DNA of 64,000 nucleotides, from assembly GCA_964016885.1 (NCBI GenBank), contig OZ024744.1, positions 61,442,001 to 61,506,000 on the forward strand. Reading direction: 5' to 3'. The notes beneath the pieces are model-generated. The model saw only the letters and a list, made by a program, of their open reading frames with translations. It did not search any database and was not told the DNA's origin. The translations under genes and the position numbers were made by a program. The stretch comes from Eledone cirrhosa. Its lineage: Eukaryota. This document shows, in pieces, positions 3,101 to 35,645 of the stretch. The stretch's first letter is position 1. Each line of letters opens with the position of its first letter.

Positions 3101-3184
3101 TTAAATATGATACATCTCCAGAAGCCCTATAAAGATATAGCCCTCTGAAGGTACAATTTTCTTTTGGACTTGCTGAATCCCAGG

Positions 3185-10989: not shown

Positions 10990-11028
<39 letters not shown>

Positions 11029-11130
11029 GATCCCCAAGTGAGACCAGCTAAGCTCATGGATGTTATCCAACCATCTTGTTCGAGGTCAACCGTTGGGTCT
11101 CCAGGGTGGGGGATTGGTAAAATTGTTGTA
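10776..11130. mobile_element. 3' end of a second RTE-like LINE family with a local inverted duplication
   Basis: Frame ...PRTRWLDNIHEL and a (GAA)n tail; 10776-10879 is inverted at 11027-11130. Other family copies at ~32550-33080 (-) and ~41935-42310 (-). Confidence 0.8.
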
Positions 11131-12571: not shown

Positions 12572-14189
12572 CTGGAAAATGTAGTTGGCCGACAGGTACT
12601 GTTACGTTATTGTGCCGCGGTCTATTGAGTCTATATAACAACTTGGTTTATAAACTTACTTAAACATTTTCTCTGTACTCACTCGCATTTCCTTCTCTCA
12701 TCCTTTTTTTTCCCCACTCACTCTCTCTTTATATATATATACAAATATTTATATAACGCTTTATCTTTCTCCCTCCTCTACACACATATATACGTAGTTA
12801 CACACGTACACAAAGGTTGTTTTTGTTTTAGTTTTTCGTTAGTTAACAGGTCAACTGAGATTGTAGTCTTATACTATATATATATATGTGTGTGTATGTG
12901 TGTCTATATATATATATAGGCGAGGCCAATGTCCTCATTTCCAATATACAATACACACATATATATATATATATTTGTGTTTGTGTATATTTATATATAT
13001 ATATATATATGTATATACACGCATTAAACACGTACAGACACTTGTACAAACGTGTGTGTGTGTGCGCGTGCGAGAATGCAGACAAGCATGTATGTTTACT
13101 TTATCTAAGGGGTCAACGATCTATTCTGAAACATAAAACACGATAGATAGCTTATTTAAAACTGCAGGATATTGGGTTAACTCTGATCAAAGGTTAATCA
13201 TTTCGGAATACGGAATAAATTTACAAAGTTGAAGGTTGCCACAATTGAAAAATGCGACAAATAATATGTTCTTGTTCATCATTACCATCATCAGCACTAA
13301 GAACAACGACAAAAGCACCACCACCGCCACCGTCGCTACCACTACCGCTACAATCATCATCATCTCTGACGCTAGACAGATTTGGGATGGTCACGTCCTA
13401 CTCTTACGATCCTGTTTGGCACGTTTTTCACGCGACCAGTGTGGCTGCAACACCAAAGTAATCGCTATGGCCCCAGCAGGACAGAAAGAGACTGTGCTGG
13501 GAAGGAGGAGGGATAAGAGCATGGGGAGCCTGGCAGATGTTGCTTGTAGAGAAGGCAAAGAGTGAGAACAGGTACTGTGCCGTGGTTACAGACGATGTAT
13601 ATATACACACAAATGAAAATACGAGCATTCCAATGCAGAGAATGTCGATTCCTCGCAGGCACCAGTGAATACTTTCAAAAGTTATAAATTTCGTGAATAT
13701 ATATATATATACAGACCTGTCAACCTCTAAAAACCCAAACGGCGAGTACCATGAAAAAAAGTACCCCACAGCGGTGAGAAATAAGGCAAAATGGAGAGAT
13801 TTTACATAATGAAAACTAAACCCATTTTCACAAGAGAAGACATTTCTCACCCGCCCCAAAGTGAGTGGGTGATCTCCCTGTCAGATGGGTGAATTGATAG
13901 GTTCGTGTGTGTGTATATATATATATATATAGAATAAGGAAAAGCGAAGTAGTTTCAGATGTTTAAGTCTTTTACTAATAATTGTTTCTACTTTAGGCAC
14001 AATGCCAGCAATTACCCAGTGCATTACTGGTACTTTATTTTATCGACCCCGTAAGGATGAAAGGCAAAGTCAACCTCGGCGGGATTTGAACTCAGATCGT
14101 AAAGGGACGTAACTATGCTGGAAAGCATGGCGTCCGACCCTCTACCGATACTGCCAATCCACCGCCCTTATAAGTCTTTTAATAATAAT

Positions 14190-14263
14190 GCTGTGATATA
14201 TATTTCAATGACGACACTGGCCACACTGTTCTGTGTGCGAGTGTCGCGACATCGTCAGACAGC
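14190..14263 (-). ncRNA. Minimal type I hammerhead ribozyme (family A, inverted arm)
   Basis: GCUGU-CUGACGA-stem II-GAAA-UAUAUA-UC-ACAGC on the minus strand. Confidence 0.8.
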
Positions 14264-14840
14264 TTGTTACATAATAAGGTTATGTTTCCGAGGCAATCCA
14301 AATTGAATCGACTCACTTCAATCTATATGTTTTTTACTCACCTCAATCTCACTTTAAACATTTTTTAATTTCTAATTGTTAATTTTTTTTTTTTTATTAT
14401 TTATAATTTCTGGATTTTCGATTTTAAATTTTAATTTTAATTTCCAACTCTCATCATAACTTCCAATGTAAAACCATGATACCTAGAATTAAGTATATTT
14501 TCTCTTAGGTCAGTTGTACATTAAGTATATTTTCTCGATGGTCAGTTGTACTGTCGATGCTTGGTGAGAGGTAGTATTGTGACCTGTAAAAACTAACACT
14601 CTCCCATCCCCGCTGGCTTTCGGCTGACTGCCACAGACGGGATGGGTAGCAGTACAGGCCTGAATGGGTCATTGTTTGGCTGAGAGGGGGAACTGACTAA
14701 GCGAATTTCGTTGAAATCTGCGGTAGCTAATGGTCAACTTCCTTCGGACATGCGCCGAAGAACCCAAAAGCACATACTTCGTCCGTTCCCATGTCGATTC
14801 AATTTGGATTGCCTCGAAACATAACCTTATTATGTAACAA

Positions 14841-14914
14841 GCTGTCTGACGATGTCGCAACACTCGCACACAGAACAGTGTGGCCAGTGTCGTCATTGAA
14901 ATATATATCACAGC
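14841..14914 (+). ncRNA. Minimal type I hammerhead ribozyme (family A)
   Basis: Stem I GCTGT(14841-45)/ACAGC(14910-14); CTGACGA 14846-52; GAAA 14898-901; palindromic loop III TATATA; UC cleavage site after 14909. Confidence 0.85.
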
Positions 14915-15672
14915 CTTATTATTAAAAGACTTGAACATCTGAAACTACTTCACTTTTCCTTATTCGATATTTACTCCATCACTCCTATGTGGAAAAAGTA
15001 TGTTGAGTGCTTGAATTGAATTGCATCAATGTTTACCCTAAGTATATATATATATATATATATATATTTCGTTTCTGAATTTGTTTAGCAAGATTCTTTA
15101 TCTGAAAACGTGTGTTGAAACCGATATTGTTATGCTTTGGGAGGGTCATGTTGCCAATAAGAAACACGAACCCTCCCAAAGCATAACAATATATATATAT
15201 ATATATATGAACGATTCCAACCGTGACCATCCCCACTGAAAAGTTTCGTGAAATAGTCTTTTTAAGACTATATAGAGCATTTGTAGTTTTTCCAAATTTA
15301 AGGATGAGTATTTAAGCTTTATTTTATTCTGAGTTAAGACTCTATTGGTTTTTCCCTGGATTTCACAAAATCTGTGGATAAAATCTCTGTCTTGATTTTT
15401 TAAAAATTGAGTTTGAATTATTTTCCCATATCTTGCGTTAATTATTTTCCATTTTGACGTTATAGTCACTTATATATTATAAAATACTGTTGGCTTCTTG
15501 CTCACAATAATTTCTATATTTTCATTTATATATATATATATATATTCTGTATATATATATATGGGGAGGGTCATATTTGTGTAATAATATTGCCAGAATT
15601 AATAACAGAACACACTGTTTGGTTGGTTTTCGCTTCTGTGTCTTTTATATCGGTTAAACTAATTCATCGCCG

Positions 15673-15720
<48 letters not shown>

Positions 15721-15737
15721 TGTATATATATATATAT

Positions 15738-16268
15738 AAAACAAAGAAAATGTGGTAAGGAACCAGGTGGACCATAACGCACCAGAGTACTCGGTACTTA
15801 GGGTATTAGAGTGGTTAATAGGAAAAGAGTCGGGACTCCAGCGGCTGAGCTATGGCCGTTTTGATAGCTAGATCCAAACAGTTCAGATCTAGCTGTCAAA
15901 ACGACTGGAGCTCAGACGTTGGGGTCACGACTCTTTTCCTATGTCGATCTTGGATTTGCAGACACCTAGCGGGGATGTTGTGTGCTGTATGTGATGTATA
16001 TCGTATGCTATACGATATGCATTATATGTTGCATTCCATCTCAGCGTTTTGTCCAGGTCAGTCTAAAATCTTTTCCTCAGTCCAACCATTCTCATTGCTG
16101 TGGTAATGCAGTTGGACTGCCGATCGCTATATTTGATTTGCTAAACTGTCTAAACGTATTGTTATTACTCTGGGGTACTATTCCCATTTGAGTGCTAAAG
16201 CTACATACCGAATTTGCATTCGTTAGCTTGGCCGTGAACTAAATCTTCGTTAATGATGTACTAAAATT

Positions 16269-16270
<2 letters not shown>
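15738..16270 (+). mobile_element. (TA)n-embedded element with a long hairpin and the shared ACTC..GAGTG tail (family B; no canonical hammerhead seen)
   Basis: Imperfect hairpin 15818-15942, smaller hairpin 16079-16118, tail TTACTCTGGGGTACTATTCCCATTTGAGTGC. Confidence 0.55.
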
Positions 16271-16317
<47 letters not shown>

Positions 16318-16324
<7 letters not shown>

Positions 16325-16712
16325 TTTGTGGTAAGATGGCTTAGATGCGTCCATAGGCAGTATGCCAGTTGAGCACTCAATGCTCCTTCGGAACAGAGTA
16401 TAATATAGAAAACAAAGAATCAGTAATGCATCGAAACACAATTTATTTACATATTACAATTGTTTCTCTGGCGAACAGCTTGAGGTACGATCTATTTGTG
16501 GATCGAACCTGACTCTGGATTCGCAAGTTCCTCAGATATGTCTAGCGACTTTGAAGCAAATCTTCTGGAGGAACTGAGGAACTTGCGAATCCAGAGTCAC
16601 ATTCGATCCACAAATAGATCGTACCCCGAGCTCTTCGCCGGAGAAACAATTGTAATATGTTAATAAATTGTGTTTTGGTGCATCACTGATTCTTTGTTTT
16701 CTATAATATATA
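16318..16712 (-). mobile_element. Penelope-like inverted-pLTR element, family C
   Basis: Inverted arms ~16402-16535 and ~16574-16706; tail on minus reads TACTC..TTGAGTGC; flanked by (TA)n. Confidence 0.8.
16449..16541 (-). ncRNA. Type I hammerhead with extended stem II (family C)
   Basis: ACAUAU-CUGAGGA-~62-nt stem II-GAAA-CAAUUG-UA-AUAUGU. The first stem II pair is A/A, so activity is uncertain. Confidence 0.7.
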
Positions 16713-16789
16713 TATATATATATGTCTAACCCATGCTAGCGTGGAAGATGGACGTTAAACGATGATGATGATGATGATGATGATGATAA

Positions 16790-19125
16790 TATAATAGGGT
16801 AGATGAGGCAGTTAAGGCCAAGAGACAGGCATAGAAAGAATGGAAGAGCGGGGGAAGCAGGGTACATTACATAGGGACCAGGAGGGAAACTAGGTGACAA
16901 GTATACTTAGCTAGAAGGGAAGCAGAGGATAGAAAATTCAAGCATATTTTGCAACGTGAGGACCAGAAACAGGAGGTGTTCAAGATTGTGAGGCAGTATG
17001 TCAGAGAGAATTGGGATGTCATTGGAGAGAAGTGTATCTGGAATGATAAAGATGAGCTTGCCCTCACAAGTGCTGAGAAGAAAGATGTGTGGAAGAGCCA
17101 TTATGATAGATTACTAAATGAGGAGAATGCATGGGAAGAAGAGATCCTACCCCAAGTAGACCCTATAGAGGGACCAGCAGTACAAGTCAGCAGCAGTGTA
17201 AGTAAGGCAATCAAAGATATGAAGACGGGGAAGGCAACTGGTCCATCGGGTATAGCTGCCGAGATGCTGAAGGCATCTGGGTCAGTAGGTCACACTATAA
17301 CCACACGTATTGTTAACCAGGTAATACTAGAAGGTGTCATACCAAAGGACTGGTGCAGTAGCATCATTGTCAACTGCTACAAAGGTAAAAGGTGATGCAC
17401 TAGATAGAGGAAACTATAGAGGTATAAAGCTGATGGACCAGGTCATGAAAGTAACAGAAAGAGTTATAGCACAGTTGATTAGGGACCGGGTGAAACTAGA
17501 TGAGATACAATTTAGGTTTGTGCCAGGAAGAGGCACCACTGATGTCCTCTTCCTTGTGAGGCAGTTACAAGAAAAGTACCTAGCTAAAAGTAAGCCACTC
17601 TACCTGGCATTCGTCGATCTTGGGAAAGCCTTTGACAGAGTTCCCCGTGCTATAATCTGGTGTGCTCTTAGAAAACTAGAAGTAGATGAATGGCTTGTGA
17701 AAGCTGTACAAGGTATGTATAGGTGAGCAATCAGCAAAGTTAGGATTAGCAATGAGTATAGCGAGGAATTTAGTGTAAAGGTCGGTGTCCACCGACGCTG
17801 TTCTTAGCCCGCTCCTGTTCATCATTGTCCTGCAGGAAATAACAGAGGAGTTTAAGACCGGATGCCCATAGGAACTCCTGTATGCAGATGACCTCGCACT
17901 TATAGCTGAATCTATGGTAGAACTAGAGAAGAAATTCCAAACTTGGAAGCAGGGACTAGAAAGAAAGGGTCTCAAAGTCAACCTGACAAAGACTAAGGTC
18001 CTTGTAAGTAGATGAGAAAACAGAACCCAGATCCCCTCAGGGAAAAGGCCTTGCTCAGTATGTAGGAAAGGTGTAGGTAGGAACTCCATTCTCTGCCCAA
18101 AATACAAACAATGGGTACACAAGAGATGTAGTGGGATCTCAGAAAGGTTAACTAAGAATGTAGGCTTCACATGTAGCAGCTGTGCTGGGACAGCAAGCAG
18201 CAAATGACCACAGGAAACAAGTACCACCAATCTCTGGGAGGGCTCTGTAGAAACAGTAGACAGCTTCTGCTACCTAGGTGACCGAATTAGCAGCGGAGGT
18301 GGGTGTTCTGAAAATACAATAACTAGGGTAAGAACGGGATGGAAGAAGTTCAGGGAGCTATTGCCACTGCTAGCTGCAAAAGGCTTTTCCCTCAAAATGA
18401 AAGGCAGACTATGATGCAATGTTACATGGTAGTGAGACCTGGGCGCTGTCTGTGGAAGACTTACGTAGATTAGAAAGAAACAGAGCTTGCATGCTCTGAT
18501 GGATGTGTAACAGTAATATATGTGAATGGCAAAGCATAAACGAATTAAGAGAGAGACTGAGCATAAGAGGAATCAAATGCTGTGTGCAGGAGAGGAGGTT
18601 GCGTTGGTATGGACATGTAATGCATATGAAGGATGACAGCTGCATAAAAAGGTGCAGAGCACTAGAAGTCGAGGGAAACCGCGGAGTGGGGAGACCCAAG
18701 AAGACCTGGAATGAGGTGATAAAAGCCGACCATACCCAATTACACCTCTCAAAAGTGATGACACATGACCGTGACCTCTGGCGTGACGCAGTAATACAGA
18801 ATACCCGACCCCCCACGGGTACAAGCCGAAGCTGAAGCATATAGACAATATGCCCCCACACCCTCCCACTGCAAAGTGGTTGTGGAGGTGCCACGGCAAA
18901 AAATCACCCAGCCCACACTGTAAAGTAGACATGTAGGCGCCACGCAAAAAAGCACCCAGCACTCACTGTAAATGAGGTTGGTGTTAGGAAGGGCATCCAG
19001 CTGTAGAAACCAAGGCAAAATCAGTTTGCATGAGCAAGGCATGGTCAGCCAACAGACACTGCCCACAACAGGACAACCCGTCTAAACCATGCTAGCGTGG
19101 AAGAACGGACGTAAAACGGTGGTGT
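16790..19125 (+). mobile_element. 5'-truncated RTE LINE (linker, RT, PHD-like finger, 3' UTR)
   Basis: KATGPSG, NYRGIKL, AFVDLGKAFDRV, LYADD and WYGHV motifs, with stops and frameshifts. Confidence 0.95.
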
Positions 19126-19139
19126 TACTGGTACTTTAT

Positions 19140-19600
19140 TTTATACTCAAAAGAAAGAGGCTTTGAAATGCTACTTTAAGAGGTTAATGAATGGGAGAAA
19201 GGAGACTACTTCCAACTGGCTATAGAAATTGACAAATATAGGGTCAAAGAAGCAATTAAAAAAAAAATGGTAAAGCCACTGGACCTTCTGAGATAATCAC
19301 TGAAATACAGAAAGCATCTGGGTAAGTAGGAGTTGAACTAGTCACCCACTTACCCTATGACTGATGCAACAGTATAGTCATTAATTTCCCCGGGAAGCAG
19401 TGATGCCATAGAAAGGAACAACAGGGGAGTAAAACTAACAGACCAAGTTGTGAAAGTGACAGAAAGAGTTCTAGCACAACTAATTAGGGTAAAAGTCAAA
19501 TTAGATAAGATGCAATTTGGTTTCATGCCAGGAAGGAGCACCACAGATGCTCTCTTTTTAGTAAGACAAGAGAAGTTCTTATCTAAGAGTAAGCCTTGAT
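19140..19600 (+). mobile_element. Old RTE RT fragment
   Basis: Degenerate match to the RTE RT N-terminus (VTERVLAQLI..MQFGFMPGRSTTDA). Confidence 0.7.
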
Positions 19601-19784
19601 ACCAGTAACTGCAGTGCACATTGGACAATAACAAATGGACACATGGGACAGTAGCAATGGACACAAGACAGGACGATAAGTTTTTATTTGGCTATTTACA
19701 AATAAATAAAATTTATTAGAAGCCAATGTGCTGTAATTGGGAAAAAGAGATAGAAACAAAACCTAACATATTAGCCAAGAAGGC

Positions 19785-19880
19785 AAAGTGTGCACAGAAG
19801 ACAAAGTGTGCACAGAAAGCAAAGTGTGCACAGAAGACAAAGTGTGCACAGAAGACAAAGTGTGCACAGAAGACAAAGTG
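19785..19880 (+). repeat. 18-bp tandem repeat (AAAGTGTGCACAGAAGAC) x~5
   Basis: Direct inspection. Confidence 0.95.
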
Positions 19881-21754
19881 AGGGAAAAATTGCTAGCTAC
19901 AAAAGGTTTTTCCCTCAAAATGAAGGCGATGACACAGCATCGAAACCTTTGGCGTTATGTAGTAATACAAAAGACCTACATTTCTAAATCATACATGCAC
20001 CACCTTCCATCCATCCATCCCCTTTCCACATACACCCTAACACTCCACCCATGTCCTAATACACCACCCACATCCTAACACTCCACCCATGCCCTAACAC
20101 TCCACCCATCACACATGTCCCTAGATCTACCTCCCTAATCCTCACACACCTCCTTGACCTAAGACTCCAACCTACACTGTAAAGAGGTCATCTAAGTGTC
20201 AGGACAAAAAACACCTTGCCCACTTTGTAAAGTAGTTGTGTAGGTGTCCCAACAAAAAGCATCCAGTACACACTATAAATGAGGTTGGCTTTAGGAAGGA
20301 GATTCGGGTGAAGAAACCAAGATGAAATCAGTTCTGATGATGATGATGATGACAAGTTATTTCCCAGATTTGTTCTCAGTTTTGATATTATTTTGTATAT
20401 CATTGTGCATGTGATAAGGAAAGTCACTACAGATATGTATTTTTATAAATATATATCAAAGAGATATACTTATATACTTATATAAATACTATCTATTTTC
20501 AAATATTCATATTTATAACAAAACTATCCATCATAATTTTATGTAAGACCCTTTGTTAAGTTATGTTCCAAAACAGCAGCTTCCTAATGAAAAAGTTAGC
20601 TATTTTCTTAAATTCCTCCAAATTATTATTTAAAAAAAAATATTTGAAACATAAAGGCAGTGTATTTTATTACAAACGGGTCAATGTAGCTGGGCTGCAG
20701 GCCAACACCTGACACCAGTAAGAGAGTATTTGATTTTTTTTAAAATGTGATTTGAACTTTTGCAGCTCAGTAGACTTTTTCCAAGATTGTCACAGAATTG
20801 GAATGTTCAAGTTTTTCTATTTGTGTTTGTGTGTGTGTGTGTGAGTATTTGCACACGCACGTGTGTGTGTGTGTGTGTGTCTGTGTGTGCGTGCGCGTGC
20901 ATTTGTGAATGTACGCATATGCATGCATGTATGTCTTTGTGTGTGTGAGTGTGGTTCAAATCTTATCTAGGTCAATTTAGCTTTTCATCTGTTCAGGATC
21001 AATAAAATAAGTAGTGTACCACTGTAAACAGATCAAGGAAAAAAATGGTAGGGAGAGAAGAAGAGATGTGATTGGGGGAAGTGACTTAGGATGTTGGCAG
21101 GTGTGGGAGAGTTTTGGGAGTTATGGTGTTTATGGACTGGATGTTTGAAATACCAGTTAGGTGACTCATAGCATCCCAGTATGAATGAATCCTGACTGAG
21201 TAATTTCTGGGTAACAGACCTGTAATGAAATAACCCCTCCCCCGTCCAAGGAGGGGGCGGGGGAAGCAAGAATTTGTCCCATAACTGTCTCTAGGAAAGC
21301 AAACCTGCTGCTTCATGCTTAACGGAGTAAAAAAAAGAATGCACATATGTAAGCATATATATATACTTGCATATTTGTGTATTTACATTTATTTAACCTT
21401 TTTATTACCATATTTATAATGAAATGCACAGTATTTGATTTCGTTAATGAAAGAATTTGAAGGATTTACTAAGGTTATTAATTACTTCATTATTAAACTA
21501 GTATTTCTAACATAACTTAGTTAAATATTATTATATCAAATTATGTAGGAAAATTTTAATTTAAGTAGTTAGTCCTTTAAAACTTAAAAATGGGTGATTT
21601 TGGTTGGTATCAAAAAAGATGCAACACATATACACATATGTATTATAGTGGAAGATGGACATTAAACAATGATGGTGATGATGATGATGATAATGATATA
21701 TATATATATATAAATATATATACACACATATATATATACATATATATATATATA

Positions 21755-22420
21755 AAGTAAGCCGCTCTACCTGGCATTTGTCGATCTAGAAAAAGCCTTC
21801 AACTGAGTGCCCTGTGCTATAATCTGGTGGGCTCTTAGAAAACTAGGAGTAGATGAATGGCTTGTAAAGGCTGTACAAGCCTTGTATAGGGGAGCAGTCA
21901 GCAAAGTTAGGGTTAACAATGACTATAGTGAGGAATTCAGCATATAGATTGATGTCCACCAGGGCTCCGTTCTTCACCCTCTCCTATTTATTGTAGTACT
22001 GCAGGCTATAACATAGGAGTTTAAGACCGGATGCCCATGGGAACTTCTGTATGCAGATGATCTTACACTTATAGCTGAATCTATATTGGAACTAGAGAAG
22101 AAATTCCAAACAAAGAAGCAGGGACTAGAAAGAAGGGGTCTCAGAGTCAACCTGACAAAGACTAAGGTTCTCATAAGTAGACGGGAAAACAGAATGCAGT
22201 ATGCAGGAAAGGTGTAGGTAGAAATTCCATCCTCTGCTCCAAATGCAAACTATGGGTACACAAGAGATGTAGTGGGATCTCAGGAAATCTAGCTAAGAAT
22301 GTAGGCTTTACATGTAGCAGTTGTACCAGTAAGTAGCAAACAGGCACAGGAAACAAAAGCTACCAAATTCTGGGAGGGCTCAGTAGAAACAGTAGACAGC
22401 TTCTGCTATCTAGGTGATGG
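21755..22420 (+). mobile_element. RTE RT fragment
   Basis: AFVDLEKAF and PWELLYADD motifs. Confidence 0.9.
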
Positions 22421-24715
22421 AAATCTTGCCAAACAAAGGGTTGGGAGGACCCTCAGTTGTGTCAAAGGCTTGAAAATCTCTCTTAAGCATTCATTGGAAA
22501 TTGACCTGCCTGGGAGATCAGTGGCTCTGTTTCAGTACTGATTTGGTCTGTATGGACCTGTCCAACCTTTGATTGCATGATAGCAGGGAAAGTGGATGAC
22601 GATGATGAGGAGGAGGAAGATAGTGATAGTATATGCAACAAGCTTCTGTACAGGTTCCATTTACCAAATTTCAGTCATGAGACGGTCAACCCAAAGCTTT
22701 AATAGCAGACAATTTGCCCATTGTGTGACACAATGGGATTAAACCTGAAATCATGTAGTTGCAAAGCAAACTCCTCAATACTAATATTTCAAACTGCTTG
22801 AAACTATCTCCATCTCTATGATACACAGATAAAGAACCCTTCATCATAATTTTATGCAAAAACCTTTCTTAAGTTATGTTCCAAGCACCAACTTGATAAT
22901 GATTGCTACTATAGGCACAAGGCCAGTAATTTGAGGGAAGGGAAAGTCGATTAAATCGACCCCAGTGCATTACTGGTGATTTCTTTTATCAACCCCATAA
23001 GGATGAAAGACAAAGCTAACCTTGGCAGGATTTGAAATCATAATGTTCTTAATAATTGTTTCTACTTTGGGCACAAGGCCAGCAATTATCCCAGTGCATT
23101 ACTGGTGCTTTATTTCCTCGACCCTATAAGGATCAACAGTTACATTATTTTCAAAATTATTTGAAAACCATAATCAGTGTTGTTCATTAGAAAAATAACA
23201 ACAAAAAGGTTAAAGTGTTTATATTTATCTAAGCTCCTTTCAGTATAATTTTATGTCAGAACCTTCGTTAAATTATGTTCCAAATGCCTATTTAATAACG
23301 AATAAGTTAGTTGTATCATTATCTTGCCCTAAATTCTTGATGATTTTCAAAATTATTTGGAAATCATAGACAAGTCATTCATTATATCAGGCAGTGGATT
23401 GGCAGTATCGGTAGAGGGTCGGACACTATGCTTTGACACATAGAGTTACGGCCCTTGCCATTCTGAGTTCAAATCCCGCCGAGGTTAACTTTGCCTTTAA
23501 TCCTTACGGGGTCAATAAAATAAAGTACCAGTAATGCACTGAGATAATTGCTGGCCTTGTGCCAAATATAGAAACAATTATATCATGTTTCAAAAATTAA
23601 TTTGATAAGATAAAGACAAGGAAGTCACCAAATTCAACTACATATCATGTTAACTATTCCTGGTCAACTGTATAAAGTTTTTCTACAAGTATACATGAGT
23701 GTGTGTGTGTGTGTGCGCAGATGTGTGTATGTGCATATATGTGTATGCATGTGTGTGTGAACTCACTAATGGAGATTGCAAATCTTAAATCTAACAATTG
23801 TAGAGAATAATATATAACACAACTATATACACACACACACACTCACACACATACACATACACACATACATATTCATAGAATTGCACATACACACACACTT
23901 ACATATGCATGTAAATCATACTGTCCTTTTTGTGTTCAAAAAAATATTTATACCAGGAATCAGCCACAGGTGAGTCATTGAGGTATTCTCAGTGGGCTTC
24001 AGACATTTTCAAATGTTTATATGTAAGATATGATATAATATATACATGTGGGCCATTGAGGTGTACTCGGTGGACCTCAGGCCTTTTCCAATGTTTTTAT
24101 GTTAAAGTGAGAAATTAATCTTCAGAAGGATCAGATGCAGTTTACTAGAGAGGAGACTACGTTGGTATGATCATGTGATGCATATGAAGGACAACAGTTG
24201 TATAAAAAAAAGTGTAGACCAATCAAAATTGATGGAAACTACGGAGTAGGTAGACCCAGAAAAACCTGGGACAGTGTGATAAAAACTGACCTTGCTGACT
24301 TGACCTCTCTAAGACAATGTCACTGGATAGAGATCTTTGGTGCTATGCAGTAATGCAGAAGAAGTGTTGGCCCTAAAGAGGGCCTTGTAATGTTCACTGT
24401 TGCAAAGTGTCAATAATAGGGGAGAAGTTACATCTTCTTAATTTGTGTTAATCTTCCTACGATCTGACACCTCAAAATATCGACAAAATAATAAACTCTA
24501 GTCTCAAAGACGGCATATTACAATTAACATGTCGGGAGTACGATATACGATTTGGGTTTTATTCTTCGGACTAATCTCATGGTAAACCAACTTCCAGGTC
24601 ATTGATCATCACACTGTTTTGTAACTTATCACTGATTCTTGCAGTTGACCTTAATGTGACCTAAACATGTGCACATGTTCAGAATCAATATCAGTGGATA
24701 TGATATATATATATA

Positions 24716-26455
24716 TATTAAAATAACAGATTAAAGTTTAAGCAAAGAATCGCTGCTTTCACCCTTAACGGGATCTTCTGAAACTAAAAAAGTCAATCTG
24801 TGAACGCAGAAGTGAATATTTCAAAAAACGTTGCAACTGAAGGAAGACAGGAAGACGATACTTTGGTTCGTGGAAACGTTCCCTGGAAAAGAACGAAAAA
24901 AAAAACGAAGATAATACATCATTATTTGGAGCGGTGAAAACAATTATGCGCAAAGACAAAACCATGTAAATGGTATAACTGAAGCCATAGACTAAAATTC
25001 TAACTAGGAAACAGAATGATTCTCTTCTTCAGAGTTAAGAATAAAATAAATAAAATACAGAGGTAATCGAAATTAAATATATACATACACGCATACACAT
25101 ACGTAAATACACAAGCATACGTGAAAACACTCGGCATGGATATGCAAATACATGCACGTACAAAAAAAAACAAAAAAAAAAACATCGCGCCCATACAGAA
25201 CCCACGCAACGCCTGTACCCGCACACATACGAATGTATACACCAAATACAATGATAAAATATATATAAAAATAAATATATATATATATGTGTGTGTGTGT
25301 GTGCGCGTGTATACATATATTTAAATGAAAAATAAATACGTATATAACGCGTGCACACACATACCTACATGTAAAACACGTATGTTCGCAGACGTACGTC
25401 AACCAAAACACAAAGTACACAAATACACACACCCTACATACGTACGAACCCGCATACTCACGCAGACACAAAACTCACATATACACATAACCAAATGCAC
25501 ATGTACCAGAATATATAATATATTATATACGCCATAACATATACAAGCAAATATACGTACGAGAAAGTATACGTACCTTCACAAAACATACAGGTAAAAT
25601 ATACTTACCTATACAAATAAGTAATGGTATAAACATAACATATACTTAGTTACCACATCAAGACGTAAAATATCCGCGTATAATTCGTACTATCCGTTAG
25701 GGTATAATGTGGGGCTGTAATACAGGAAAGTTTTGTGCAATTTATGTTTACAAGCCGAAAATGCCTCAGATTTGTTGTGTAAGATGTGGTCTTCGGCGCA
25801 GAGTATTTCCAGGGTCTCAGCGGCGCAGAGGTCACATGGTTTTATTTCCGTTATACGATCTAGCTTTAGCTAGGATCTCCCAGTGTTACTTATATTGGGC
25901 AATGAAAGGAAAAATCGAAGATAATACGTCATTATTTGGAGCGTTCAAAACAATTACACGCAAAGACAAAACCACGTTTATGGTATAATTGAAGTCGTAG
26001 ACTAATATTTGCGTGTAATTGTTCTCAATGCTCCACATAATGACGTATTTTCTTCGTTTTTTCCGTTCTTTGCCAGAGAACGTCTCCACGAACCAGCTAA
26101 TAGAATATTAGTCTACGACTTCATTTATACCATAAACCGTTCCAAATACTGACGTATTATCTTCGTTTTTTTCCGTTCTTTACCAGGGAACGTTTCCACG
26201 AACCAAAGTATCGTCTTCCTGTTTTCCTTCGGTTGCAAGATTTTTCGAAATAGTACTTTTGCGTTCACAGATTGATTTTTTTTTAGTTTCAGAAGATCCC
26301 GTTAAGGGTGAAAGCAGCGATTCTTTTCTTAAACTTTAATCTGTTATTTTAATAAATATTTGCTCTACGATTCTTATATATTTGATATATATTTATCCTT
26401 ATCGAGCCCTCTTTGGATTTTAGTCTTCAAATTTATTATTATTACTATATGTATA
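24716..26455 (-). mobile_element. Penelope-like element, family D, with GIY-YIG endonuclease C-terminal remnant and inverted pLTRs
   Basis: Minus strand ~25890-25725 reads WEILAKARSYNGNK/(frameshift)CDLCAAETLEIL...LHNKSEAFSACKHK, matching the W-I..A..Y..C-LC..E..I..LN..E..S-CRH pattern of PLE endonuclease ends. Arms ~24716-25000 and ~26100-26352 are inverted. Tail with GCTC..GAGC, then (TA)n. Confidence 0.8.
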
Positions 26456-26459
26456 TATA

Positions 26460-29400
26460 TGTACAGCCACCGGAAAAAACATCTGTGAAATATACAGCGC
26501 CATCTACCTGTTAGCTAGCTACCTCACTGTGAAACTAAACAACCCTTAGAAGCTACCAGAATAAACGACTACACAGCGGCTAAACATCAAACGATTATTT
26601 CTGTATAAATAGAGTGGTTCCAAACACTTCGCCAGTCGACATTTGGCAGTCAACTCGCGTACCGTTGTTCCTCGCCTCTGCCACGCTTTGTCACACACAC
26701 AAAGGCGCATGCATCTTTTCCAAGATAGATTTGGTGCGTGCATATAACCAGATACCTATGGAGCCTGCAGATATTCCGAAGACCGCAATCACAACACCGT
26801 TCGGTTTATTTGAATTCCTGCGAATGCCGTTCGGTCTGCGCAACGCTGCACAAACTTTTCAGCGGTTTATTGACACCGTGTTACGCGATCTACCCTTCGT
26901 ATACGCGTATATTGACGACGTGCTGGTAGCAAGTACTTCCGAGCAAGAACACGAGAAGCACTTAGATATCCTTTTCCAACGTTTGGCTGAGTACGGTATC
27001 ATCATAAACCCCAGCAACTGCCTTCTCGGCGTTCCTTCACTGTCCTGTCTCGGGCACATCATCGATAAAGACGGCATTCGTCCACTTCTTGAGAAAGTAA
27101 AAGCTATCCGCAGTTTTCCCGCACCTACATCACTTCGGAAACTGCGTGAATTCCTCGGTCTGGTGAATTTTTATAGGCGTTTTATCCCTCATTGTTCCGA
27201 CGCAGCCAGACTCCTCACGGACCTTCTTCGTAACCGGACTCGCAAAAACGAAAGATCACTCTAAACGAGGAAGAATTAACATCTTTTAACCGCCTGAAGG
27301 AAATGTTGGCAAACGCTTCCATGCTCGTTTTCCCCAGGTCTGGCGCTCCTCTTTCGCTGCTTGTGGACGCATCAGACACGGGGGTTGGAGGCGTTTTACA
27401 ACAACATGTCGACGGCGTGTGGCAACCCTTATCCTTCTTTTCTAAGCGGTTGCAACCTGCAAAAGCGAAATACAGTACATTTGGCCGCGAACTCTTGGCA
27501 ACCTATCTTTCGGTTAAGCATTTTCGGCACATGCTCGAAGGATCAGATTTCGTGATCTACACGGACCATAAACCATTAGTTTATGCGTTCCGTACCAAAC
27601 CTGATCGACATTCACCGAGAGAACTCCGACACCTGGATTTTGTCTCCCAATATTCAATTGATATTCGGCATATCAAGGGAACAGAAAACGTAGCAGCCAA
27701 CGCCCTGTCCCGAATCCAGCTGAACGCAATACATGTGCATTCAGGCATCGACCTTCAACAGATCGCAGCTGACCAAGAGACTGACGAAGATTCGCCATCC
27801 CTCAAGTTTCAGCAAGTTCCCACTCCTTCTTCCCCGGGACAAATTTGGTGCGACCTTTCTACCGGTCATGAACGACCGTACGTACCACAGATGCACCATC
27901 GACAAGTTTTTTCTGCTTTACACTGCTTGTCTCACCCGGGAATCCGGGCTACACAGAAACTCATCTCCGCTCGTTTTGTGTGGACTAACATTAACAAAGA
28001 CGTGCGCGACTGGTCCAGCAGCTGCATTGCCTGCCAGAAAGCCAAAGTCCACAGACACATCAAAACTCCACTCGGCACATTCGTGCAACCTGATGCACGT
28101 TTTCATCATGTGCATATCGACATCGTCGGACCTCTACCACCATCACAGAACTACACACACTTTCTCACCTGCGTAGATCGATTGTTTCGTTGGCCTGAGG
28201 CTTTTCCCATAAATGATACCTCAGCGGAAACAATCGCTAAAACTTTGGGTTTACACTGGGTATCACGTTATGGCGCCCCAGCGAAGATAACAACGGACAG
28301 AGGACGCCAATTTGACTCCCACCTCTTCAGGGGAACTGACCCGCCTGTTAGGATGTAAACACATCCGCACGACAGCTTATCACCCGCAAGCTAATGGTCT
28401 CGTAGAAAGATTCCATCGCCAATTGAAAGCCGCAATAAAAGCATATCCAGACAAGACCCACTGGTTTGAATACCTGCCACTCATCCTTCTGGGCATTCGA
28501 TCCACCGTTAAGGAGGAATTCGGACACACACCTGCAGAATTAGTGTACGGCACCACCCTGGTTCTACCTGGTCAGATGGTTGCTCCCATCTCTCCTCAGG
28601 ACGTTCCAGACCCAGGATCATACGTACACCGTCTTCGACAATATATGTCTCACCTTGCTCCTGCAAGCACGGCCACACATGTTCCTTCAGACATTAAAGA
28701 TTGGACACACGTTTTCGTTCGAAACGACACCATCTCAGCTCATCTTCGACCTCCATATTCTGGCCCTTACTGTGTTCTAAAAAAATATCCGAAATATTTT
28801 ATTCTCGATCTAGATGGTAAACAGAATTCTGTCAGCATGGACAGATTAAAAAAAGCCATCATGGATACTGTTACAGTCACTACACCAGAAACTCCAACAG
28901 ATTGCTGTCCCAGCAAGCCACCTGTTTCATCTCCAGTCACGAGAAGTTGACAACGCGTCCATTGGCCCGCCAAGTTGGCACAATATGTGAATTACCATTA
29001 ACCTCAAGTAAGTTTCTTCGTGCAAAACATTTCCATTTTCTTGTGTTTCCTATTTCCAGTTTCAAATACAATGAACTTTCTGCTTGAACAAATGCAATTT
29101 TTAGTGACCATGTGCTCATGTCACGAAGAACATTATTTATTATGAACATTATTTATTACAAACACTAGTTAAGAACAAACATTGTGTATATCATTGTGTA
29201 TAACATTTTTTTCTTCTCTCTCTTGTTTTGCAAAATTTTTTTTTTTTCTTGTTCTGTAACATTGATTGTACAATTGCCATAATTTTTATATACATACAAG
29301 GCATGTACATATTCTGTTTTTCATGCACACTACAAAACCACGTTTGTTTCACCTTTTGGTTCATACACGGAGCAATAGATATTTGTGTCCCTCTAACTCT

Positions 29401-30400
29401 TACACTACAAAATGTTTTCTCTTTGATCACGCATTTCACAAATCGCATCCTCAAAACATTGGCCTTCTTTTTTCACGTACACATTCACTCAATAGCTCGA
29501 GAATGCCTCGCTATTTTTTTTATCACATGCATTCGCTCAAGTCATATGCTGTGGAGCAAGCTGTTACCTTTAGGCAGCATGCTTACGGCCATTCAGTTCA
29601 CACATTACGGTTATCTTCACTGCCCAGTTAGACTTTTTGTCACGCAATTCACAGGCAGCTCAACCCAAATTGCAACAGGCTCATTCATCACGCCTGCATA
29701 AATCTGGTCAAAGTCATTTTATAGTTTATTTCTTTTTTCTCTTCCTGACACACACATCTTGCCATATCATCTCTACATCGACTCTGTCCTGTACTCGATG
29801 ATCACAAAATTTCACAACGTGCTGGACACTCCTGGGGCTATTGTCATGACAAATGCACCACTGGTTCATTACTATACAATATTTCGCTCTTTTGTTGTAC
29901 AAAAGAACTGGCAGGGGGCTAATGTACAGCCACCGGAAATAACATCTGTGAAATATACAGTGCCACCTACCTGTTAGCTAGCTACCTCACCGTGAAACAA
30001 AACAAGCCTTAGAATCTACCAGAATAAACGCCTACACAGCGGCTAAACATCAAACGATTATTTCTGTATAAATAGAGTGATTCCAAACACTTTCACCAGT
30101 CGACTCTTGGCAGAGTCAGCTAGCGTATCGTTGTTCCTCTCCTCTGCCACGCTTTGTCACTCACACACGCCTTGTACCTCTGTATCGTCGCTTCATGTGA
30201 AAATAAATAGCTGATCGAATTTACATCTGGCCTTGCTTCGTCCTTTCAACTTGTGCTTTCGCCTGTTCATCCTTACCGTATGTGACAACAGCTCTTTTAA
30301 GAGCTATCTTCAGATACGATCAGACCGTATGCGATAACAGTCTTTTAAGGGCTATTCTCGGATCTGATCAGAAGTAGTGACCAGACTGACTAACAGTTGA
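26460..30400 (+). mobile_element. Ty3/gypsy LTR retrotransposon with gag/protease deleted
   Basis: Partial 5' LTR TGTACAGCC.. at 26460-26700 is repeated at 29923; PPT GGCAGGGGG lies before the 3' LTR; pol order is RT-RH-IN. Confidence 0.95.
26701..28995 (+). pseudogene. pol: Gypsy pol (RT, RNase H, integrase) with frameshifts near 27260 and 28330
   Basis: [60 protein letters not shown] and PYSGPY motifs. Confidence 0.95.
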
Positions 30401-30453
30401 ATAATATATCTTATTCAACTGTTAACAAATGAAAAATACTCACATAATCAAAA

Positions 30454-30528
30454 TATATACTTTATTATATATATATTTCAAAGGTACTGTGATGTTTTTC
30501 AGTACGTCCTCATCAGACAAAATATATA
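30454..30528 (-). ncRNA. Minimal type I hammerhead (family E, inverted arm)
   Basis: Reverse complement of the plus-arm ribozyme, with loop III UAUAUAUA. Confidence 0.8.
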
Positions 30529-30631
30529 ATTTGATATATGACACCGCTACGGTCTTGATTATTCAATTCCAGTATTAACTTCCAATACCGGAATTGAATA
30601 ATCAAGACCGTAGCGGTGTCATATATCAAAT

Positions 30632-30705
30632 TATATATTTTGTCTGATGAGGACGTACTGAAAAAACAACACAGTACCTTTGAAATATATATAATAAAGT
30701 ATATA
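30632..30705 (+). ncRNA. Minimal type I hammerhead (family E)
   Basis: 12-bp stem I TATATATTTTGT/ATAAAGTATATA (2 GU pairs); CTGATGA 30644-50; stem II GTACTG/CAGTAC; GAAA 30682-85; loop TATATA; UA site after 30693. Confidence 0.85.
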
Positions 30706-31209
30706 TTTTGATTATGTGAGTATTTTTCATTTGTTAATATTTTGAATAATATTAAAAACTCCAGGAAAACTCACTGTTGAGTGCTTCTAATCTATTGTAA
30801 AGCTGTATTCGTTGAGTAATCAACGAACCATACTAATCTTTGGTTATATACATATAAATATTTGCTCTACAGTTCTTATATATTTGATATATATTTATCC
30901 TTATCGAGCCCTCTTTGGATTTTAGTCTTCAAATTTATTATTACTATATATATATATACACACGTCCTTCCCTAACCTTCTCATACTACTCATACGTGTA
31001 CCTCTCCTCTTCCCCCTCTCTCACTGAAGTATCTTCTCTTTCCTCTTCCATTGTAAAGATGTCCCCAGGGGTTCCATTATTGAAATCCAATTAGCCAGTC
31101 CTGTTTATGAATATTAGCTTAACATATGTGTAAACTTTCATCAGGTTCAGATCACTGGTGTAGGCGCCAACAGGTTATAAACAGATATGCAGACAGAAAT
31201 TGCCATTTA

Positions 31210-32525
31210 TTTAGCATACAGGTCGGTGTTCACCAGGGTTCTGTTCTTAGCCCTCTCCTGTTTATTATACTATTGCAGGCTAACAGAGGAGTTTAAGACC
31301 GGATGCCCATGGAACTCCTGTATGTGGATGATTTCACACTTATAGCTGAATCTATGGCAGAACTAGAGAAGAAATTCCAATCATGGAAGCAGAGACTAGA
31401 AAGAAAGGGTCTCAAAGTCAACCTGACAAAGACTAAAGTCCTCGTAATTAGACGAGAAAACAGAACCAAGATCTCCTCAGGAAAATGACCTTGTTCAGTA
31501 TGTAGGAAAGGTGTAAGTAAACAATGGGTACACAAGAGATGTAATGGGATCTCAGGAAGTTTAACTAAGAATGTAGGCTTCACATGTAGCAGCTGTGCTG
31601 GGACAGCAAGCAGCAAACAGCCACAGGAAACAAGCACCACCAAACTCTGGGAGGGCTCTGTAGAAACAGTAGACAGCTTTTGCTACCTAGGTGACGGAAT
31701 TAGCAGCGAAGGTGAGTTTTCTGAAAGTACAATAACTAGGGTAAGAATGGGATGGAAGAAGTTCAGGGAGCTACTGCCACTGCTAGCTGCAAAAGGCTTT
31801 CCTTCAAAATGAAAGGCAGACCGTATGATGTGTACATACGAACAGCAATGTTACATGGAAGTGAGACCTGGGCGCTGAAGGTGGAAGACTTACGTAGATT
31901 AGAGAGAAATGAAACGTGCATGTTCCAATGGATGTGTCATAGTAATATACGTGAATACAAAGCATAAATAAATTGAGAGAGAGAGACTGAGCATAAGAGG
32001 AATCAAATGGTGTGTGCAGGAGAGGAGGTTGCATTGATATGGACATGTGATGTGTATGAGGGATGACAGCTGCATAAAAAGGTGCAGAGCACTAAAAGTC
32101 GATGGAAACCATGGAATGGGGAGACCCAAGAAGACCTGGGATGAGGTGATATAAGCAGACCTTACCCAACTGCACCTCTCAAAGGTGATGACACTGGACC
32201 GTGACCTCTGACATTATGCAGTAATACAGAGTACCTGACTTCCCATGGGTACAAGCTGAAGCATATAGACAATATGAAGCATATAGACAATATGCCCCCA
32301 CCCTCTCCCACTGCAAGGTGGTCATGGAGGTGCAACGGAAAAATGCACCCACACTCGCTGTAAATGAGGTTGGTGTTAGGAAGGGCATCCAGCTGTAGAA
32401 ATCAAGCCAAAATCAGTTCCCGTCTGAGCAAGACAAGGTCAGCCGACTGGACACTGCCCACAACAGGACAACCCGTCTAACCCATGCTAGCATGGAAGAA
32501 TGGACATAAAATGGTGATGATGATA
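31210..32525 (+). mobile_element. 5'-truncated RTE LINE
   Basis: ELLYVDD and MLHGSETW motifs, 3' UTR and GAT tail. Confidence 0.92.
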
Positions 32526-33127
32526 GTATATATATATATATTCTTTATTGAGATGGTCACCCTCAAACACTCGTTCTCAGCGAGTCCTGTCAAAAGCAAC
32601 TGTCTCCAACTGATCCAGCTGAATCCCCAAGTGTGACCAGCAAAATACGTATCCATAGTACTGGAACTGTGTTCTCTCAATTCGGAGAAAATAGCAGCTC
32701 TACCTGGAGTGACCCTCTGATCTCTGAGCTACACTCTATCAAGTAATGCTACTCCAAAGACCCTTCTGAGGAATCCCATTTAGGCTGCTTGCATTCACAA
32801 TCATATTCTTTCAGTCATTACCCAAAATTCATGATCATAGGTAAGGGTTAAAACTAATTCTGAAATGAAAATAGTGAGTATGGCATTTACGCCTACCTCC
32901 CTTCTTTTGATTGCTGAATTCTGAAGCTGGTGCATTACTGCACCAGCTCCTGCATTTCTTGCACTTAATTCAGCCTCCTGACTTATCATCACTTGTGAAC
33001 ACAACCCGAGATACTTGAATTTCTCAACCTACTTCAGTAGAACTCCATTTACATGTAGAATGTACTGCACTGGCTGCCAATTAGGAACTCCCATGATTAG
33101 TGGTCGCCCCAGTCTCAGTACTGCAGA

Positions 33128-33188
<61 letters not shown>

Positions 33189-33384
33189 TTCATAGAAAAA
33201 TGAGAAAACTCATTACTAGAACAGCTGTTAAAACAGCTAAATGTTATCTATGACAGTGATGGGCAAAAATGCCTCAGAGGTCAGATACCAGTGACCAGCG
33301 GTTGACAGAGACAATCCATGAGGTGGGTAGCAGGAAGATGAAAAGATTGAAAGAGGAGGAGGACAGGAAGTGACTGGAAGAAGG

Positions 33385-33650
33385 AAATAATTGTTTCTAC
33401 TTTTTGGCACAAGGCCAGCAATTATCCCAGTGCATTACTGGTACTTTATTTTTTGGTCGACCCCGTAAGGATGAAAGGCAAAGTTAACCTCGGCGGGATT
33501 TGAACTCAGCGGGATTTGAGCTCAGTCCGAAGGAAATAATTGTTTCTACGTTTGGCACAAGGCCAGCAATTACCCAGTGCATTACTGGTACTTTATTTTA
33601 TCGACCCCGTAAGGATGAAAGGCAAAGTTAACCTCGGCGGGATTTGAAGG
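33385..33650 (-). mobile_element. Tandem SINE fragments separated by GAAGGAAATAAT duplications
   Basis: Two SINE bodies; the 12-mer occurs at ~33380, ~33528 and ~33646. Confidence 0.8.
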
Positions 33651-33675
33651 AAATAATGAAAGGCAATCTACAAGA

Positions 33676-33732
<57 letters not shown>

Positions 33733-34226
33733 CTTCACCCTCATCAGCTCTCAAACCAGCAAAATGGTTTTGCACAATTTATTTGAGAATACCATTTTAG
33801 AATTCTGGATTGTGTAACAAAAAAAATAAATCTTTCTGTTGGTATGATGTGAGTGTGATAAAACAAACACCACTGATAGGATAATAGAAGACACAGAAAA
33901 TAACAGGATAGTGGACCTCAAGCTGTGGTGTCTGTGCTAAATAGAAAACTAAACATAGATATGATAAAGTTAAATGAAAAACACTGTTGTCCCTGATTGA
34001 GACGAAGCGAGAGTGTATTTGAATTCATAGAAAAATGAGAAAACTCATTGCTAGAACAGCCTTTAAAACAGCTAAATTCTGTCAATAACAGTGATGGGCA
34101 AAAATGCCATTATTTTCTTTTCTTTGTCTTCTTTCTTCCTTCTGTGAAGGACAGATACCACCCACATGCTCCAACACCACACTCATGATCCGGTGCCTCC
34201 ATCCCCACTGCAAGCAGCATATAAAT

Positions 34227-34443
34227 GCACCATTTCAACAGTAAGATGCTCAGTGTCTTACTGGGGAGGCAATGGTAGGGGGCTGGGCTGGGTTACAGGC
34301 ATTGCACTGTCAATGAGGGTAGAGGCATGGAGGCAGCAAGGCAACCTTGAAGAAAGTGGATGGTGTCTGACTTGTAACCCAGCCCAGACCCCTACCATTG
34401 CCTCCCCAGTAAGACACTGAGCATCTTACTGTTGAAATGGTGC
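34227..34443. repeat. Near-perfect 71-bp inverted repeat
   Basis: 34227-34297 versus 34373-34443. Confidence 0.9.
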
Positions 34444-35311
34444 CATGACAAAAATACCCAGTCCACCCTGTAAGGTGGTAGTGCTGGTGTCATGAAGAAA
34501 AGCACACAGTTCACACTGTGTTGGTTTCATGATGAAAAGCATCTAGTCCACCCTGTAGGGTTGTAGCCATAATAAGATGCTCCCAGTTCATGCTGTAAAG
34601 TGGTTGGCATTAAAAAGGGCATGCAGCTGTAGAAACCAAGCCAAAACAAATTTCCTTAAGGACCACCAGATCGGGGTACTCTGTCAAACGCCTTCTCTAG
34701 ATCAACAAAAGCTAAGTATAGAGGCTTATTCTTAGCTAGGAACTTCTCTTGTAGTTGTCTCATCAAAAGATGACATCTGTGGTGCTCCTTCCTAAAACTA
34801 AACTGCATTTCATCTAATTTGACTCTTCCCATAATTAGTTGTGCTAGAACTCTTTCTGTTACTTTCATAACTTGGCTTATTAGTTTTATTCCTCTGTAGA
34901 TGTTCCTTGCTAGTACTTTAAATCTTGATAAGGAGACTGTGATAGTCTAGAAACGTTGATTAGATTATGGATTTAGGAACTTTGTTGTTTTAAATGAACT
35001 GCAAAGGACTCAAAGAAATATGAGGAAAACCTAAATACAGATTTGGGACAGAAATGTGGTCATCTTTGATAGCACATATAGCACATGTCTAAAAAAAAGC
35101 TGTACCCATATATATATGGATATGGATATGGATGTGTGTGTGTGTGTGTGTGTGTGTGTGCCCCGGATGTAAAAAAACTGGTTCAAAACATCCTGTTACA
35201 ATAATGCCAGTATGAAAAAGTGGATGTAAAAAACATGGTTATGATAATGATAATGTTGATGTATATTTATATATAGTTATATTTGATGATGATGATGATA
35301 TATATATATAT

Positions 35312-35645
35312 ATACAATATATTAATAAATGGAAACTATATTTATAAAACCATATTTATTTTATTATACATATTTCAAGGGCAACCAAGGCAAATTATGG
35401 TGCGCTTTCATCAGATAAAATACAGATTTGTTTTATAAATAAATATTGACATACCCGGAAAAAAAGACAACCTTAATTTGCCTTGGTTGCCCTTGAAATA
35501 TGTATAATAAAATAAATATGGTTTTATAAATATAGTTTCCATTTGTTAATATATTGTGTATTTACTCCACTAAATTGTTGAGTGCTTTATATCAGTTATA
35601 AAAATGTTTAAGCTTGTTGAATCCCAACAAATTAAATATAACCTC

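Follow-up and report, generated by a model that had tools for sequence, protein, structure and literature searches.

This study concerns a 64,000-nt stretch of Eledone cirrhosa DNA (the window; GenBank assembly GCA_964016885.1, contig OZ024744.1, positions 61,442,001 to 61,506,000 of the forward strand) and a small hairpin that recurs in it near the ends of Penelope-like elements (PLEs) of the Hydra clade. Our results show that a full unit of these elements carries the hairpin twice in its 5' untranslated region (UTR), that copies end a few nucleotides before one hairpin or the other, that the inner stem of the hairpin covaries, and that fold-back insertions as a rule combine a short end with a long one. 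From these genomic patterns we infer that the twin bulged hairpins probably place the reverse transcriptase (RT) of the element 2-7 nt upstream, where copying would start and leave the hairpin uncopied; the hairpins would be bound by the enzyme, act as RNA and direct priming. The elements in the window form seven high-copy families, A, B, C, D, E, G and J, nested in each other's (TA)n runs, and four families searched by DNA each gave 1,898-3,908 first-look candidates in the 3.0-Gb genome. A young family with intact 800-aa open reading frames (ORFs), H1, was reached through a motif-bearing locus.

In full units of H1 and J the order is ORF, long 3' UTR, hammerhead ribozyme, short end, hairpin 1, long end, hairpin 2 and ATG, and read-through copies of B, C, E, G, A and D match this order of hairpins. 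Each hairpin, 20-28 nt long, consists of RCTC, an inner stem of 2-5 bp with a variable loop, a 2-nt 3' bulge and GAGYRC; hairpin 2 lies 13-73 nt upstream of the ORF. A copy ends at either of two positions, beyond which (TA)n begins: 2-7 nt before hairpin 1 (the short end) or 2-7 nt before hairpin 2 (the long end). When the end is taken as the last base identical to read-through copies (exact anchors), all 15 of the 15 family-ends examined fall within 2-7 nt of a hairpin foot. The short/long offsets are -4/-4 to -6 in H1, -5/-3 in J and in B, -2/-2 in C, -2/-3 in G, -3/-3 in E and -7/-6 in A, with -4 at the long end of D. The spacing between the two hairpin feet is 76 nt in A, 78 in J, 81 in E, 88 in C, 90 in both G and H1, 96 in B and about 111 in D (by eye for E and D). 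A microsatellite follows most stops (18/19 and 19/19 in H1, 41/44 and 39/43 in C). The original prediction saw a single motif per copy; the units carry two hairpins, and hairpin 2 is almost never present in truncated copies. Truncated copies show the motif once, inside the tail, as the tail would be the interval from hairpin to hairpin. This arrangement predicts hairpin 2 just past the long end, and such a pattern was found in 11 matches for family B and 336 for family J, with none in either control. Public-run contigs, which are of unrecorded kind and come from one study and possibly from the same organism, give similar ends: for J, with hairpin feet at 1792 and 1870, loose (TA)n ends lie at the predicted positions, 1786 and 1866, and for H1, with feet at 3409 and 3499, they lie at 3404 and 3492. 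A separate observation in these contigs is a frequent loose end of H1 without TA (L140:3391), 18 nt before hairpin 1, which may reflect a subfamily or a template jump that recurs.

The two ends also obey a pairing rule in the fold-backs. Among 14 unselected fold-backs of family J, met by chance in loci fetched for other purposes, 12 join a short to a long end, one is short+short and one long+long (by eye; P=0.006). In a larger set of 95 pairs, mostly motif-selected and classed by local alignment, which overshot into TA repeats, 71 are short+long, 3 long+long and 2 short+short, and 19 have a read-through or unclassified arm; offsets of 0/+1 and the 'other' class of family G in this set are artefacts. 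The motif was earlier suggested to be the point where the inversion starts. It does mark the outer end of the arm, but the centre of the inversion lies 42-581 nt upstream and is variable. We also observed that 5' truncations and fold-back centres are tightly clustered in two families, 56-64 nt upstream of hairpin 1 in J (L390:1722-1726) and 176-181 nt upstream in B. These clusters sit upstream of the presumed hammerhead cut site, not at it, and may mark the 5' end of the RNA or a pause.

The suggestion that the motif is a conserved cis-acting hairpin is borne out by covariation in its inner stem. Among 101 distinct matches picked on the outer sequence alone, some of them chance matches, inner positions 1-3 are paired in the 2-nt-bulge register in 87/100, 64/94 and 48/69 cases, compared with 7-47% in five other registers, and such counts were reached in none of 5000 partner shuffles. 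The outer pair is G-C in 80 matches and A-T in 12, with T-A forms in two loci. In an alignment of hairpin 1 built from 26 of 33 twin regions, after exclusion of duplicates, false twins and two long ones, 97.6% of the cells are paired and the covariation score is 0.295 versus 0.104 (0/500 shuffles). The variant once described as possibly compensatory, GCTC/GAGC, differs from ACTC/GAGT by a double change at one stem pair, and it is the commoner form elsewhere. In family A the second inner pair, compared among six copies (window 14973-15010; loci L043 and L103), is G-C in two, G-T in three and A-T in one, a possible two-step compensatory path.

The hairpin is common to Hydra-type elements of cnidarians, molluscs, echinoderms and arthropods. 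A metagenome scan with a single protein query gave no loci; a profile from an alignment of 21 relatives gave 77, in 51 of which the ORF start was matched and in 45 of which at least 90 nt lay upstream. The motif precedes the ORF in 34 of these 45 Hydra-type loci, as a twin in 19 and singly in 15, and is absent from 11, whereas the antisense control gave 3 single matches, ORF interiors none, and shuffles 0.94 single and 0.015 twin matches per set. Spacing in the metagenome twins is 54-82 nt. Automatic inference of ends was usable in seven metagenome loci, with offsets of -2, -3, -3, -3, -11 and -21 and one locus without a next hairpin. Of six published Hydra consensuses, five carry the hairpin or a close variant by eye: it is clear in Hydra-2_Amil, Hydra-2_Ajap and Hydra-1_Ajap (twice, 61 nt apart, the consensus starting at hairpin 1), present as variants in Hydra-1_Crog and Hydra-1_Obim, and doubtful in Hydra-1_Amil. 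These published carriers include coral, sea-cucumber and copepod consensuses.

A mechanism that would account for this geometry runs as follows. The RT would bind each hairpin in the element RNA, and the endonuclease would cut both strands of a (TA)n target. Each target 3' end would then pair with a few AU bases 2-7 nt 5' of a hairpin, and reverse transcription would begin there. Two RT protomers would start at the two hairpins, one per cut strand, and the two complementary DNAs (cDNAs) would join head to head. Long ends on ORF-bearing copies would need a template that extends past hairpin 2, either by tandem read-through or as circular RNA, and retention of both hairpins would allow the ORF-less families A, D and F to be mobilised in trans. 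The original prediction had proposed RT recognition or second-strand priming; this is the best-supported reading, although the binding and priming in it are steps that we infer. A bolder version, in which the hairpins dock a dimeric telomerase-related RT with one protomer per hairpin and cut strand, their spacing sets the tail, and other PLE clades follow this two-site rule with hairpins of different sequence, is possible but in our view rather doubtful. In vitro work on the Poseidon element PAc (Frangieh et al. 2024, PMC11167929), as given in its main text, describes an AT-rich target of which both strands are cut and extended, a predicted dimer, and two internal RNA start sites that bound the tail, with RNA up to +172 required and starts at or before +118. 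PAc would share with the present elements the two tail-bounding starts, the use of both strands, the AT-rich target and the need for RNA 3' of the starts. It differs in that it belongs to another clade and its starts lie inside an AC-rich stem-loop within the ORF, whereas the two starts proposed here would each be immediately 5' to one of a pair of similar UTR hairpins; a duplicated motif or a conserved determinant of start sites is not reported in the main text of that paper.

Several other explanations of the hairpins have to be weighed. They might steer cutting or 3' processing of the RNA 2-7 nt upstream, so that the RT starts at new 3' ends by ordinary target-primed reverse transcription. 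Such cutting predicts identical genomic ends, and RNA-seq reads of the Poseidon element are reported in the main text to end at the start sites (PMC11167929), but the same text reports internal initiation on a longer RNA in vitro, and an RNA cut at hairpin 1 cannot template the long arm, so that each short+long fold-back would require two RNAs. We regard RNA cutting as unlikely. To the same degree we doubt that the hairpins are a protein site for translation control or cis-preference and that the ends are set by AU microhomology to (TA)n alone. Hairpin 2 does lie just before the ATG, and TA microhomology is present at every end, each falling in a short AT/TAT tract. However, the hairpin loop of family G holds a longer TA tract, which 33 of 33 copies run past, and 28/29 J and 29/29 H1 copies that extend beyond hairpin 1 attain the long end, so the ends are not explained by microhomology alone; moreover, the ends follow both hairpins as the spacing varies, and ORF-less families keep both hairpins. 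A signal at the DNA level, by which the endonuclease trims the ends after recognising or cutting either element DNA or a single-stranded cDNA hairpin, seems to us improbable. The counts of paired bases do not distinguish RNA from DNA, and the endonuclease of D. virilis Penelope needed tail sequence in DNA, according to earlier work cited in the main text of PMC11167929. Yet hairpin 2 is missing from long-end insertions and hairpin 1 from short-end insertions, which means that the inserted product lacks the very signal by which its end is marked, and the motif is strand-specific, with 112 sense versus 27 antisense matches. That the hairpins are inherited 5' UTR sequence without a present role is very improbable and largely refuted by the covariation and the tracking of ends: the ORF-linked carriers do all belong to one clade, but their flanks are unalignable, their inner stems covary, and the motif occurs in duplicate, linked to both ends.

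A number of points weigh against placement of the RT by the hairpins. Genomic ends, on which the proposal rests, cannot separate internal initiation from RNA cutting. The predicted hairpins are weak (-5.6 to -10.4 kcal/mol); two of the seven window copies (14973 and 30758) are predicted to fold otherwise, in both window copies of family G the outer stem is closed but the 2-nt-bulge register is not formed, and the minimum-energy fold predicted for three twin-hairpin units lacks one or both hairpins (z -0.6 to -1.2). Because the outer stem served for selection and is near-invariant in the alignment, covariation is carried by the inner pairs only, and the shuffle controls ignore relatedness. Of the 11 metagenome loci (among 45) without a strict match, some have TCTC/GAGA variants and some are truncated or mis-started. 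Family E gave no match to the strict hairpin-2 pattern past its long end; in an open search 2 of 18 copies read through, and in both of these hairpin 2 is mutated and lies three bases beyond the end. The short end of D was not seen, the offsets of A rest on four stops per end, and hairpin 2 of A is known from one degenerate copy. Finally, other PLE types insert with two ends without the motif, which is not a general PLE signal.

Judged by the diagnostic motifs of their predicted proteins, the carriers are members of the Hydra clade of PLEs. The H1 and J ORFs (the latter 717 aa and intact) are single ORFs with the RT motif YRDD and C-terminal GIY-YIG-like IY..Y(I/F)G motifs. DKT, not DKG, is found in H1, J, B and the G-linked frame of locus L080; the RW motif is found as RLRWT/RLRWR in H1 and J and as RLRW/RVRW in B, and is also present in the L080 frame. 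H1 and J further have the CxCx5C linker (CNCRIKNKC / CNCPDRSIC), CxxC (CNLC) and CxH (CLH / CKH), and lack CCHH as judged by eye. A Pfam scan of these two ORFs gave no match. The motif had been ascribed to otherwise unrelated families, which is true at the DNA level only: outside the motif the families are mostly unalignable (local scores 14-26, except 67 for B versus C), but five of the seven (B, C, E, G and J) are tied to Hydra-clade ORFs, their proteins being 31-64% identical to one reference ORF, that of H1 (by segment 31-64% for the read-through families and 38% for J). The links of B, C, E and G come from ORF starts in read-through copies only, and A and D are ORF-less. Family A has a unit of about 1.4 kb (locus L043), a partial tandem with a degenerate hairpin 2, and family D a 630-nt tandem unit with an insert of about 70 nt in hairpin 2. 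An antisense-ORF model drawn from locus L048 was discarded, as the feature is actually an inverted tail piece.

The claim that the motif is kept more widely than the ribozyme is supported by families in which it outlasts the canonical hammerhead core, namely G (CAGAAGA) and D (TTGAAGA, 17/20 copies). Hammerhead cores of the form CTGANGA..GAAA occur in A, B, C, E and H1. The 5' core deviates family-wide in others, being TTGANGA in D (L351) and F (L034), CAGAAGA in G (window 26290-26313) and extended in J (L390), and the hairpin is retained in G, D, F and J despite this; among the ORF-less families A, D and F, only A has a canonical core.

According to the main text of Craig et al. (2021, PMC8557442), Hydra-clade PLEs have the same DKT, RW, CxCx5C, CxxC and CxH motifs, no CCHH, (TA)n targets, partial tandems, an inverted 5'-truncated copy and a one-sided tail; they are also described with a canonical hammerhead motif, which here is seen in some families and deviates in others. 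Partial tandems, adjacent inverted 5'-truncated copies and a one-sided tail, as in insertions of endonuclease-bearing (EN+) PLEs, were all seen here. Two features differ from that description: the tails are 30-40 nt there and 76-111 nt here, and the units, generally under 3 kb there, measure 3.5-3.7 kb here (H1 about 3.66 kb at locus L140, J 3.53 kb), the excess being due to long 3' UTRs. That main text ascribes the tail to endonuclease-mediated resolution and uses the word 'hairpin' not once. Outside the window, J forms head-to-tail arrays of four 3.53-kb units with several ORFs intact (C1:437200343-437210985 and C1:91476591-91487267); the two arrays examined both finish at the long end. Such arrays suggest copying that is young and either repeated or rolling.

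Stringent long interspersed nuclear elements (LINEs) have a stem-loop that is common to their non-autonomous partners. As described in the accessible text on ZfL2-1 and ZfL2-2 (Hayashi et al. 2014, PMC4176376), it resembles the Hydra hairpin in its small size, general stem and family-specific loop, and the LINE version is bound by the RT. It is, however, single, upstream of the start and copied, and since the Hydra hairpin is doubled, downstream of the start and uncopied, the latter is not a member of this kind. In telomerase RNA and the DRT10 noncoding RNA, boundary stem-loops likewise position a related RT on an internal template with a short primer-template alignment, in the parts of that work available (bioRxiv 10.1101/2025.10.16.682844), but they lie 5' of the template and set the stop of copying, whereas the Hydra hairpin lies 3' and would set the start. 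Families A, D and F are similar to the non-LTR retrozymes (LTR, long terminal repeat), described in the accessible texts as ORF-less tandem units with type I hammerheads and proposed mobilisation by PLEs (Cervera & de la Pena 2020, PMC7229834; bioRxiv 10.64898/2026.07.22.740005), although D and F differ in their non-canonical core TTGANGA. A cis signal for this mobilisation is not named in those two texts, in which 'hairpin' occurs 0 times. Retrozymes are further characterised by expression as circular RNA. Searches of the open full-text literature, including PMC8557442, PMC3846280, PMC4209133, PMC7229834 and bioRxiv 10.64898/2026.07.22.740005, gave no description of the hairpin in the parts available.

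The motif looks clade-specific among the PLE types compared in this genome. A second abundant PLE family, with an ORF ending in NITTYN and a CX4CxxC linker, likewise has two ends; these lie at the ORF start, separated by 60 nt, and the motif occurs in none of the five read-through units of the family. Both of its ends are followed by AATATC and, 20-25 nt later, by GATA (window 15068-15192; loci L112, L113, L123 and L128), possibly a different twin hairpin. In the top 30 PF01541 loci (GTAMG-type RTs) the motif is absent from the 3' regions, followed as far as (TA)n or for 900 nt, tails being only partly delimited, and it is absent from four 5' regions of long ORFs at such loci. At L003 and L014 family B seemed to be linked to a GIY-YIG ORF, but this was rejected: two families are nested there in one (TA)n run, and the ORF belongs to the NITTYN family. 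Identity with a selenocysteine insertion sequence was also rejected, as there is no Rfam match and the carriers are not elements with an N-terminal endonuclease; selenoprotein Naiads are described in the main text of PMC8557442.

Within the window the seven sites of the original prediction are all present where it placed them, and an eighth, in family J, had been overlooked. Hairpin 1 of family A lies at 14973-15010 (+), with a tail to the long end at 15042 and then (TA)n. Its hammerhead core CTGACGA..GAAA (14846-14901, +) is within the right arm 14793-14965, and its left inverted arm (13932-14312, -), a short-end copy whose outer end is 7 nt before hairpin 1, is split by an insertion at about 13982-14171 resembling a short interspersed nuclear element. 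The family J site (15787-15812, -) ends in GAGTAC and has a tail to about 15740; the palindrome at 15818-15942 is the fold-back of J and does not belong to the family D element (15943-16270), which has hairpin 1 at 16167-16195 (+) and no inverted arm of its own. Hairpin 1 of family E (16373-16399, -) has a long end at about 16327 and fold-back arms 16399-16535 and 16574-16710, both with hammerhead cores. Family G is represented by hairpin 1 at two sites, in the GCTC..GAGC form: one at 26362-26409 (+), which has a long AT-rich loop, a right arm 26136-26359, a tail to about 26446 and a short-end left inverted arm 24711-24935 (-), and one at 30864-30911 (+), part of a tail stub without arms (about 30855-30946) that is nested at the end of a family B element. 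Inside the former insertion lies a C-terminal remnant of a Hydra-type ORF (25693-25842, -), 44% identical to the family J ORF (E 9e-10). Hairpin 1 of family B (30758-30784, +; long end about 30846) follows the fold-back 30408-30752, with hammerhead cores at 30644-30685 (+) and 30476-30516 (-), and hairpin 1 of family C (35564-35585, +; long end about 35649, then (TA)n) follows the fold-back 35307-35563, whose left arm holds a complete hammerhead core (35373-35414, -). An Rfam scan of the window at gathering score gave 0 matches, hammerheads, selenocysteine insertion sequences and iron-responsive elements included.

The motif was said to lie roughly 30-80 nt before (TA)n, and the measured distances at the seven named sites are 32, 75, 52, 60, 64, 42 and 33 nt. 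Its position just beyond the inverted arm holds at five of the seven, but not at 16167, which has no arm of its own, or at the armless stub at 30864. The loose pattern ACTC-N5-35-GAGTG is barely above chance, with 17 window matches and a shuffle mean of 11.3 (8 of 100 shuffles as high). The stricter ACTCY..TTGAGTGC gave 5 window matches versus a shuffle mean of 0.2 (0/300 shuffles as high), all five with (TA)3 25-100 nt downstream, and TTACTCY-N8-26-TGTTGAGTGC gave 369 matches genome-wide versus 4 for the reversed control. In 30 genome loci chosen by the motif, an inverted arm ends at -18 to +3 of the pattern start in 10 and elsewhere in one, with no nearby arm in 19, and (TA)n lies 59-77 nt downstream in 23.

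Other features of the window include a Gypsy-type LTR retrotransposon at about 26460-30190, whose pol frames are broken and whose two terminal repeats are similar, in the TA run directly after the family G tail; a 15-bp GC-rich minisatellite of about 35 copies (8961-9464); and a 1-kb (GAA)n tract (43085-44088). A near-complete LINE-type element at 53677-56465, which may be RTE-like, has apurinic/apyrimidinic endonuclease and RT frames of 455 and 487 aa, with fragments of the same family elsewhere in the window. Fold-backs without the motif lie at 10775-11131, 34227-34443, 53323-53387 and 62965-63071.

In summary, the window insertions themselves are ordinary transposon debris, and the hairpin is a real feature of known elements whose duplicated cis element has apparently not been described so far. 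The hairpin makes the choice of start site, the one-sided tail and the inverted end of PLEs accessible to direct testing. The hairpin also offers a boundary rule for annotation of PLE repeats and is a candidate cis signal for ORF-less, retrozyme-like partners. If the two-site rule is true, it would account for tails and inverted pLTRs (the 'LTR'-like ends of these elements) across the PLE class, and if the hairpins do place the RT, they would represent a portable 'start here' tag, by which any upstream RNA might be copied into (TA)n.

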